A stretch of DNA of 24,033 bases, from IMG/VR virus record IMGVR_UViG_2690316176_000008; one strand, 5' to 3'. The notes beneath the pieces were generated by a model, which saw only the letters and a list, made by a program, of their open reading frames with translations, ran no database searches and had not been told where the DNA came from. Position numbers and translations under genes: made by a program. How positions within the stretch are numbered: position 1 is the stretch's first letter; each line of letters begins with the position of its first letter. The stretch comes from a virus (Duplodnaviria > Heunggongvirae > Uroviricota > Caudoviricetes). This document shows positions 7,816 to 7,837 of this stretch, in pieces.

Positions 7816-7837
7816 TCAGGCCACCGCGGTGGCCTGA
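7816..7837. repeat. 22-bp perfect palindrome in the D-E intergenic region
   Basis: tcaggccaccgcggtggcctga is a perfect inverted repeat with no T-run after it on the late-gene strand, so it is not a classical terminator. Lies 8 nt after the D stop and about 28 nt before the E start. Confidence 0.5.

Follow-up and report, generated by a model that had tools for sequence, protein, structure and literature searches.

The perfect 22-bp palindrome between the head decoration and major capsid genes of this defective lambdoid prophage may well be an mRNA hairpin of the phage 21 lineage, a decay barrier or insulator that is related to the terminators of other lambdoid phages but has no U-tract. We hold this reading with moderate confidence. 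The palindrome itself is real and beyond chance. It occupies positions 7816-7837 on the minus strand, reads TCAGGCCACCGCGGTGGCCTGA, and separates shp (D-like) from gene 7 (E-like) in the window, by which we mean the whole stretch of 24,033 nucleotides that was analysed. The first-pass annotation had reported a perfect palindrome of this length, tcaggccaccgcggtggcctga, at this point between D and E, and it is present as described. No longer perfect palindrome occurs in the window, and 22 bp was reached in 1 of 300 first-order Markov simulations. With up to three mismatches allowed, no second copy was found in the window, where 0 are expected by chance. The second-longest perfect palindrome, CAATACCCGGGTATTG at 20635-20650, measures 16 bp, and palindromes of at least 16 bp arose by chance in about one third of the simulations. 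We rejected assignment to a REP-like dispersed repeat, which would have many copies in varied intergenic contexts, as the palindrome is single-copy in the window; the copies found elsewhere all lie in the shp-to-gene 7 context.

Setting and fold of the D–E palindrome

The head module of the window is of the phage 21 type and consists of shp, gene 7 and an FI::J fusion, and the minus strand holds all relevant genes together with all three hairpin elements discussed below. The head decoration gene shp, of the lambda D family (7845-8192, minus strand; Pfam HDPD, 2e-24; 98% nucleotide identity to phage 21), ends with a stop codon at 7847-7845. The major capsid gene, which is gene 7 of phage 21 and belongs to the lambda E family (6759-7787, minus strand; Pfam Phage_cap_E, 1e-63, and similarity to phage 21), starts with an ATG at 7787-7785. 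In the resulting stop-to-start gap of 57 nt the palindrome begins 8 nt past the shp stop and finishes 28 nt ahead of the gene 7 start. From the hairpin to the E start codon runs an A/U-rich spacer (7788..7815, minus strand), which contains the AAGGA Shine-Dalgarno sequence of gene 7 at 7796-7800, also on the minus strand, at a position homologous to a ribosome binding site annotated in phage 21. The 12 nt from the Shine-Dalgarno sequence to the gene 7 ATG are invariant in 91 haplotypes of the 21 type. The D–E gap and the E–FI gap (51 nt) are the largest in the intact prophage, in which the other head and tail genes overlap or abut. A convincing hairpin was looked for in the C–D gap (36 nt) and was not found.

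RNA folding had been proposed as a check on the element, and as RNA the 22-mer folds stably into a 9-bp stem with six G-C pairs and a 4-nt CGCG loop, at -16.8 kcal/mol. The 101-nt context of the palindrome has a folding z-score of -3.2 against shuffles. The tail 3' of the stem is CUGAUUUCUG, with no U in its first positions, and the absence of a U-tract had been correctly noted from the sequence. No match at the three hairpin sites was obtained with Rfam 15 at the gathering threshold over the whole window, and with E-values up to 5 on 3300-8400 the only match was a chance-level one to Atu_C8 at 3445-3564. A tandem-repeat search with TRF thresholds for the "Tri boxes" annotated in gene 6 of phage 21 returned nothing.

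Three other candidates were set aside. The plus-strand open reading frame at 7842-8213 is antisense to shp and unsupported as a coding sequence. A bidirectional terminator was rejected, the plus-strand tail TAACGTGTTACGG having no T-run. An RNase III site was rejected because RNase III needs a stem longer than the 9 bp available here. Two GA/UUU motifs of the RNase E type lie downstream of the hairpin; about 0.5 are expected by chance per 30 nt, so we do not count them as evidence.

Hairpins around the capsid gene in lambda-like phages

The window has two companion elements, both found from the sequence and by terminator scan and both with a stable GC-rich stem-loop. The first, on the minus strand after E (element 6721..6751, stem-loop 6751-6731), consists of GCGGGGGCGAAATGCCCCCGT with the tail GTCTTTTTTC and lies before the FI start at 6707. 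Its U6 run starts 3 nt past the stem (tail GUCUUUUUUC), which comes close to a proper U-tract. In relatives this hairpin shows one clean compensatory change from G-C to A-U (GGGGGC/GCCCCC to GGGAGC/GCTCCC, at eight loci), and C-to-U substitutions account for the rest of its changes and leave G-U pairs; the form in the window is the majority form among relatives. The second element, on the minus strand between J and lom (element 3450..3479, stem-loop 3479-3460), consists of GGGCACCTCAGGAGGTGCCT with the tail TTTTTATTGA. It has a U-tract (UUUUUAUU) and looks like a canonical terminator. The feature that the phage 21 record OL657228 labels "terminator" after J is its homologue and differs from it by a compensatory change (GGCGCC/GGCGCC to GGCACC/GGTGCC), and the J–lom gap of lambda has its own hairpin and U-run. 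The hairpin and T-run elements described earlier after E and after J thus exist where they had been placed, and only the gene labels need amendment: what follows E is the FI::J fusion ORF (3498-6707), and what follows J is lom (2807-3430). Phage 21 (OL657228) has a further annotated terminator between I and J, AAACCGCCTCCGGGCGGTTTTATCG at 15649-15673, in a gap that is deleted in the window.

We compared 16 diverse phages with E-family capsid genes, counting as strong a single hairpin of -11 kcal/mol or lower. A strong hairpin directly follows the capsid gene in 15 of the 16, the exception being Paenibacillus phage Lily, and most of these post-capsid hairpins have no canonical U-tract. In phi80 (NC_021190) the annotated GTG start of FI at 2536 falls inside the post-capsid hairpin GTGGCCC-TGTC-GGGCCAC and hides it; the ATG at 2573, with GGAG ahead of it as in N15, looks like the real FI start. 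The D–E hairpin is narrower in spread. Conservation in lambda-like head operons had been suggested as a check, and besides the 21 type we found the hairpin in lambda/ev243, N15, phi80 and Vibrio K288. Scans of viral sequences and genomes added a prophage of Trabulsiella and one relative with an E protein 86% identical to that of the window, where the hairpin is AGGCCGCG-CTCAGA-CGCGGCTTTTTT. The scan of genome contigs with the capsid protein gave only four loci, so the diversity sampled is drawn from viral contigs and GenBank phages. In lambda, with hairpins of seemingly unrelated sequence in both places, the D–E gap contains AAAGGCCGC-CTGT-GCGGCTTTTTTT and the E–FI gap ATGGCCC-TTCG-GGGCCAT followed by TGTTTCTC, and in the N15 record NC_001901 the stem-loops before and after the capsid gene are both annotated "putative rho-indep. 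transcription terminator". A U-run follows the D–E hairpin in every sampled lineage except the 21 type. Casjensviridae-type relatives have short D–E gaps with no hairpin, so that the hairpin is dispensable in that context.

The 21-type element resembles the hairpins of lambda, N15 and phi80 in several respects. All are found in the gap from the decoration gene to the capsid gene, ahead of the ribosome binding site of the latter, have a 9-bp stem and a 4-nt loop (9 + 4 + 9 nt), end about 20-28 nt before the capsid start codon and are accompanied by a second hairpin right after the capsid gene. The arms are also alike, sharing AGGCCRC (5' arm) and GYGGC (3' arm). In contrast, the 21 type has CTGACTGATTTC where the lambda group has TTTTTTT and therefore lacks a U-tract, and its outer three pairs are U-A, C-G and A-U where the lambda group has A-tract/U-tract pairs. 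It is also more stable (-16.8 versus about -12 kcal/mol), and it alone is a perfect palindrome, by the chance of a self-complementary loop. The 21-type element is the positional counterpart of the lambda, N15 and phi80 hairpins and probably their evolutionary counterpart. By parsimony, we infer that the U-tract was lost and the stem lengthened in the 21 lineage.

The hairpins of the 21 type, lambda, N15 and phi80 align without gaps, and 95.7% of the cells in this alignment, which is anchored on the hairpin and covers few clades, are standard pairs, compared with 84% after shuffling and 22-48% when the register is slid. Pair 8-15 is A-U in the 21 type, G-U in a 21-type variant and G-C in the lambda group; pair 4-19 is G-C in the 21 type, G-U in lambda and A-U in N15 and phi80. 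Between the 21 type and lambda/N15 four pairs have changed on both sides, three of the four involving the A-tract/U-tract of lambda. G-U pairs are tolerated in RNA only, and those seen here work only in the sense RNA, which points to a sense-strand RNA hairpin and not to a DNA site.

The counterparts also raise the possibility that the D–E hairpin is a working but leaky intrinsic terminator, which would stop polymerase that is not Q-modified (spurious or read-in transcription in the lysogen) or would partly attenuate late transcription, the role commonly suggested for terminators within late operons. We consider this unlikely. The hairpins of lambda, N15, phi80, K288 and the relative with the 86% identical E protein do look canonical, a loose terminator scan flags the 21-type hairpin despite its missing U-tract, and the post-E and post-J sites have T-runs, the latter being an annotated terminator in phage 21. 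Like a canonical intrinsic terminator, the D–E element is a GC-rich hairpin in an intergenic gap, a class that the post-E and especially the post-J element fit well. However, the defining U-tract of about 7-9 nt directly after the stem is missing, no U standing directly past the stem in CUGAUUUCUG, and efficient intrinsic termination in E. coli needs a proximal U-tract. In lambdoid phages, moreover, it is Q-modified polymerase that transcribes the late genes, and this enzyme passes terminators regardless. Both phage 21 records leave the D–E hairpin unannotated, and the careful annotation of this phage marks terminators after I and J and none in the D–E gap; the omission is probably due to terminator finders needing a U-tract. 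The terminators inside the late operons of lambdoid phages, P22-like phages and SPP1 are, like the D–E hairpin, stem-loops within an operon that has a single antiterminated promoter, and they lie at the edges of the procapsid/capsid gene module. They were predicted by terminator finders and hence have U-tracts, and a 21-type element would be missed in this way. The phage L genome paper states that the roles of intra-operon terminators in P22-like phages are not known, and proposes for them the very roles considered here (PMC8022706).

Variation within the 21 type and possible roles of the hairpin

Variation was analysed in the 91 haplotypes of the 21 type, which were retrieved by capsid-protein match, so that the set is unbiased toward the intergenic sequence; the haplotypes are not independent of each other. 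Diversity per site is 0.011 in the outer 8-bp stem, 0.14 in the loop and 0.21 in the closing pair, compared with 0.078 at third-codon positions of shp and 0.095 at those of gene 7. The outer stem is thus about 7-9 times less diverse than third-codon positions in the same haplotypes. This signal lies in variant frequencies only, as 4 of the 16 stem sites segregate against about 97 of 232 third-codon sites (about 42%), which is not a significant difference. The most frequent outer-stem change, C6U, and also A8G retain pairing as G-U wobbles in the sense strand. The remaining variants of the outer stem disrupt a pair and are rare, the low-frequency variants with a broken stem pair being G17A, G17T, T15C, G16A and a 1-nt deletion. 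A conserved stem with a variable loop is the pattern usually left by a hairpin that depends on its stem and not on its loop.

The centre of the palindrome (positions 9-14, corresponding to 7824-7829) is hypervariable, with 0.14-0.21 per site, above third-codon positions. Its changes are mostly C-to-T and G-to-A, and the common variant in which CGCG has become CATG stays perfectly symmetric. The centre may be a hairpin-loop mutation hotspot or may be subject to template-switch correction. One relative (L272) has a deletion between two CCTGA direct repeats ahead of its capsid gene, at about 1420-1500, that took out the palindrome and approximately eight codons at the end of shp; one of the repeats is the 3' end of the palindrome.

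The same data bear on whether the D–E hairpin is a functionless relic of a terminator that has lost its U-tract, persisting without selection because the 21-type lineage is young and because template-switch (quasipalindrome) mutation maintains its symmetry. This is a somewhat less probable reading than the leaky terminator. Sequences of the 21 type are only a few percent apart, some variants break the stem, one of which (G14T) is common, and D–E gaps with no hairpin work in other phages. The change of the centre from CGCG to CATG remained symmetric although selection on an RNA loop would not require this, and both single-step intermediates occur only as rare variants, each in at most 1 of 118 haplotypes. 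The reduced diversity of the outer stem speaks against a relic, as does the retention of pairing by C6U and A8G while pair-breaking variants stay rare. A hairpin is also kept at the D–E position across lineages whose sequences cannot otherwise be aligned.

A DNA-level function, either binding of a dimeric protein or a cruciform or recombination hotspot at the boundary of the decoration and capsid modules, is very improbable. A perfect 22-bp palindrome with no spacer, a frequent CATG-centre variant that is again perfectly palindromic, and a location at a gene boundary in a mosaic genome would suit such a site. However, the six central positions, which give the palindrome its "perfect" symmetry, are the most variable of the whole region, and this speaks against any DNA site dependent on symmetry over the full 22 bp. 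In the homologous hairpins of lambda, N15 and phi80 the loops are not palindromic and there are G-U pairs, which would be mismatched in DNA, and the single copy in the window matches no known operator or family. The translational coupler offered by the first-pass annotation, which would pass ribosomes from shp to gene 7, is equally hard to credit: the flanking genes are needed in roughly equal, high copy number and a ribosome stopping at the shp stop would, we infer, reach the base of the stem 3-8 nt downstream, but the gap is 57 nt, gene 7 has its own strong AAGGA Shine-Dalgarno sequence, the coupled late genes of the same operon overlap or abut, and the spacing from stop to hairpin is not conserved (7 nt in phage 21, 17 in lambda and 29 in N15).

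We therefore return to the mRNA hairpin as the most economical reading, given that there is no proximal U-tract and that Q-modified polymerase would read through in any case. The palindrome would be transcribed into the late polycistronic mRNA as a sense-strand hairpin, the 21-lineage version of the D–E hairpin of lambda, N15 and phi80. Having lost its U-tract, it would be a poor intrinsic terminator in a lineage in which late transcription is Q-antiterminated anyway. The retained hairpin could then act after transcription as a barrier to 3'-to-5' exonucleases that shields the shp-proximal RNA. It could also be a structural insulator that keeps the unstructured, A/U-rich and strong ribosome binding site of gene 7 free, so that E would be translated independently of D. 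Together with the near-universal post-capsid hairpin it would bracket the E cistron.

Intercistronic stem-loops that shield the upstream mRNA from 3' exonucleases are known from the REP element in malE-malF and from the puf operon hairpins. Like these, the D–E hairpin is stable, GC-rich and located just 3' of a highly expressed cistron in a polycistronic mRNA, and a U-tract is not required. Unlike REP, it belongs to no dispersed repeat family and has one copy in the window, so that the likeness is at best one of working and we claim no membership.

The claim that the element is an RNA element rather than a terminator holds in its first part, in that the conserved stem, free loop and sense-strand G-U pairs are the behaviour of an RNA hairpin. 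Its second part is too sharp, since the counterparts in lambda, N15, phi80 and closer relatives have U-tracts and that of N15 is annotated as a putative rho-independent terminator. The late operon does appear punctuated as had been suggested, the D–E palindrome being one of several hairpins around the capsid gene. That such hairpins set the ratios of capsid to accessory proteins is an old and plausible idea. Sampson and colleagues reportedly concluded in 1988 that translation initiation, and not mRNA level, sets the ratios of the lambda late proteins; if this is right, an mRNA-stability element would carry limited weight, which tempers the stoichiometry idea.

In a bolder proposal, which we offer as possible and tentative, lambda-like phages deliberately place one hairpin on either side of the capsid gene so that the late transcript yields a separate and long-lived capsid mRNA. 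The 21 lineage would then amount to a natural experiment, its upstream hairpin having lost the U-tract while the stem was kept and even strengthened. If this were true, the selected function of "intra-operon terminators" would be RNA processing or stability, or insulation of a ribosome binding site, and not termination. Published transcript data were consulted for the D–E site: a lambda RIL-seq preprint reports small RNAs elsewhere and not at D–E, an EHEC Term-seq paper discusses only tR' and nothing on D–E, and an ONT-cappable-seq paper contains nothing relevant to it.

Terminator-like hairpins are common in antiterminated phage late operons. The sequence of the palindrome has been public since the deposit of the phage 21 head operon, and equivalent hairpins are annotated in N15. 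The D–E hairpin of lambda-like phages appears to be a recognised form of punctuation inside the late operon, and its presence here is ordinary. What is newly described is the form of this known intra-operon hairpin that has no U-tract, which is unannotated in the phage 21 records. With the hairpin kept and the U-tract gone, the 21 type is a clean natural variant that can be used to separate termination from RNA-stability or insulation functions.

The defective prophage and its deletions

ORFs in the window were assigned by Pfam, and the minus strand carries all those described here. At its end the prophage has a gene for a type III effector of the NleB/SseK family (1-981; Pfam 5e-171), which lies downstream of a tail fibre gene (1429-2748). 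Then come lom (Lom, 2807-3430), which is the next gene after J, and the FI::J fusion ORF (3498-6707), with Pfam Packaging_FI at residues 3-120 followed by J domains. Upstream of gene 7 and shp is the S49 protease/scaffold gene (8229-9734), equivalent to lambda C/Nu3 and to genes 5/6 of phage 21. Over 6600-8300 the window and the head operon of phage 21 (M81255, OL657228) share 98% identity, the phage 21 genes of this stretch being shp and gene 7, and the head region was matched in 1929 of 5426 complete E. coli genomes. The segment 6340-9752 of the window is 100% colinear with the C-to-FI segment of an intact prophage (L001).

The first-pass annotation had supposed that the prophage carries deletions, and this was borne out. 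Colinearity with the intact prophage stops near 6340, at the end of FI, and the internal deletion behind the FI::J fusion took out FII through the start of J. The fusion ORF has 1069 codons and is still open, with an almost complete FI part joined to J tail-tip domains. A second deletion junction lies at about 9752, just upstream of the S49 gene, where most of Nu1 as well as A, W and the portal gene have been lost. At this junction the sequence upstream of Nu1 (the cos region and the first approximately 70 nt of Nu1) abuts the portal end and the start of C. The prophage lacks its terminase and portal genes as well as tail genes, and the terminase/portal deletion together with the FI-J fusion makes it defective.

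Intact phage 21 has the palindrome in unchanged form. Over the 75 nt that precede gene 7, no difference is seen from phage 21, from the intact prophage L001 or from most of the viral-contig relatives. The suggestion that the elements became relevant after the deletions is refuted, as intact phage 21 and intact prophages carry the same three. The deletions neither created nor activated any of them, and the D–E element in the window is an inherited relic. It therefore has little weight for annotating the window: it was inherited with a head module that is very common among E. coli prophages, and it is uninformative on the deletions.

Elsewhere in the window, Rfam matches above the gathering score form a minus-strand cluster at 15558-18899 that is typical of the accessory RNA region in a lambdoid prophage. 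It comprises STnc100 (15558-15748), three tRNAs (15828-16074), STnc490 (17849-17972), the C4 antisense RNA (18699-18783), isrK (18809-18886) and the c4 a1b1 target (18847-18899). The lysis and nanS-like region contains two long terminator-like hairpins, at 11862-11894 and 13371-13399 on the minus strand, with 13 and 12 pairs, respectively, and T-rich tails.
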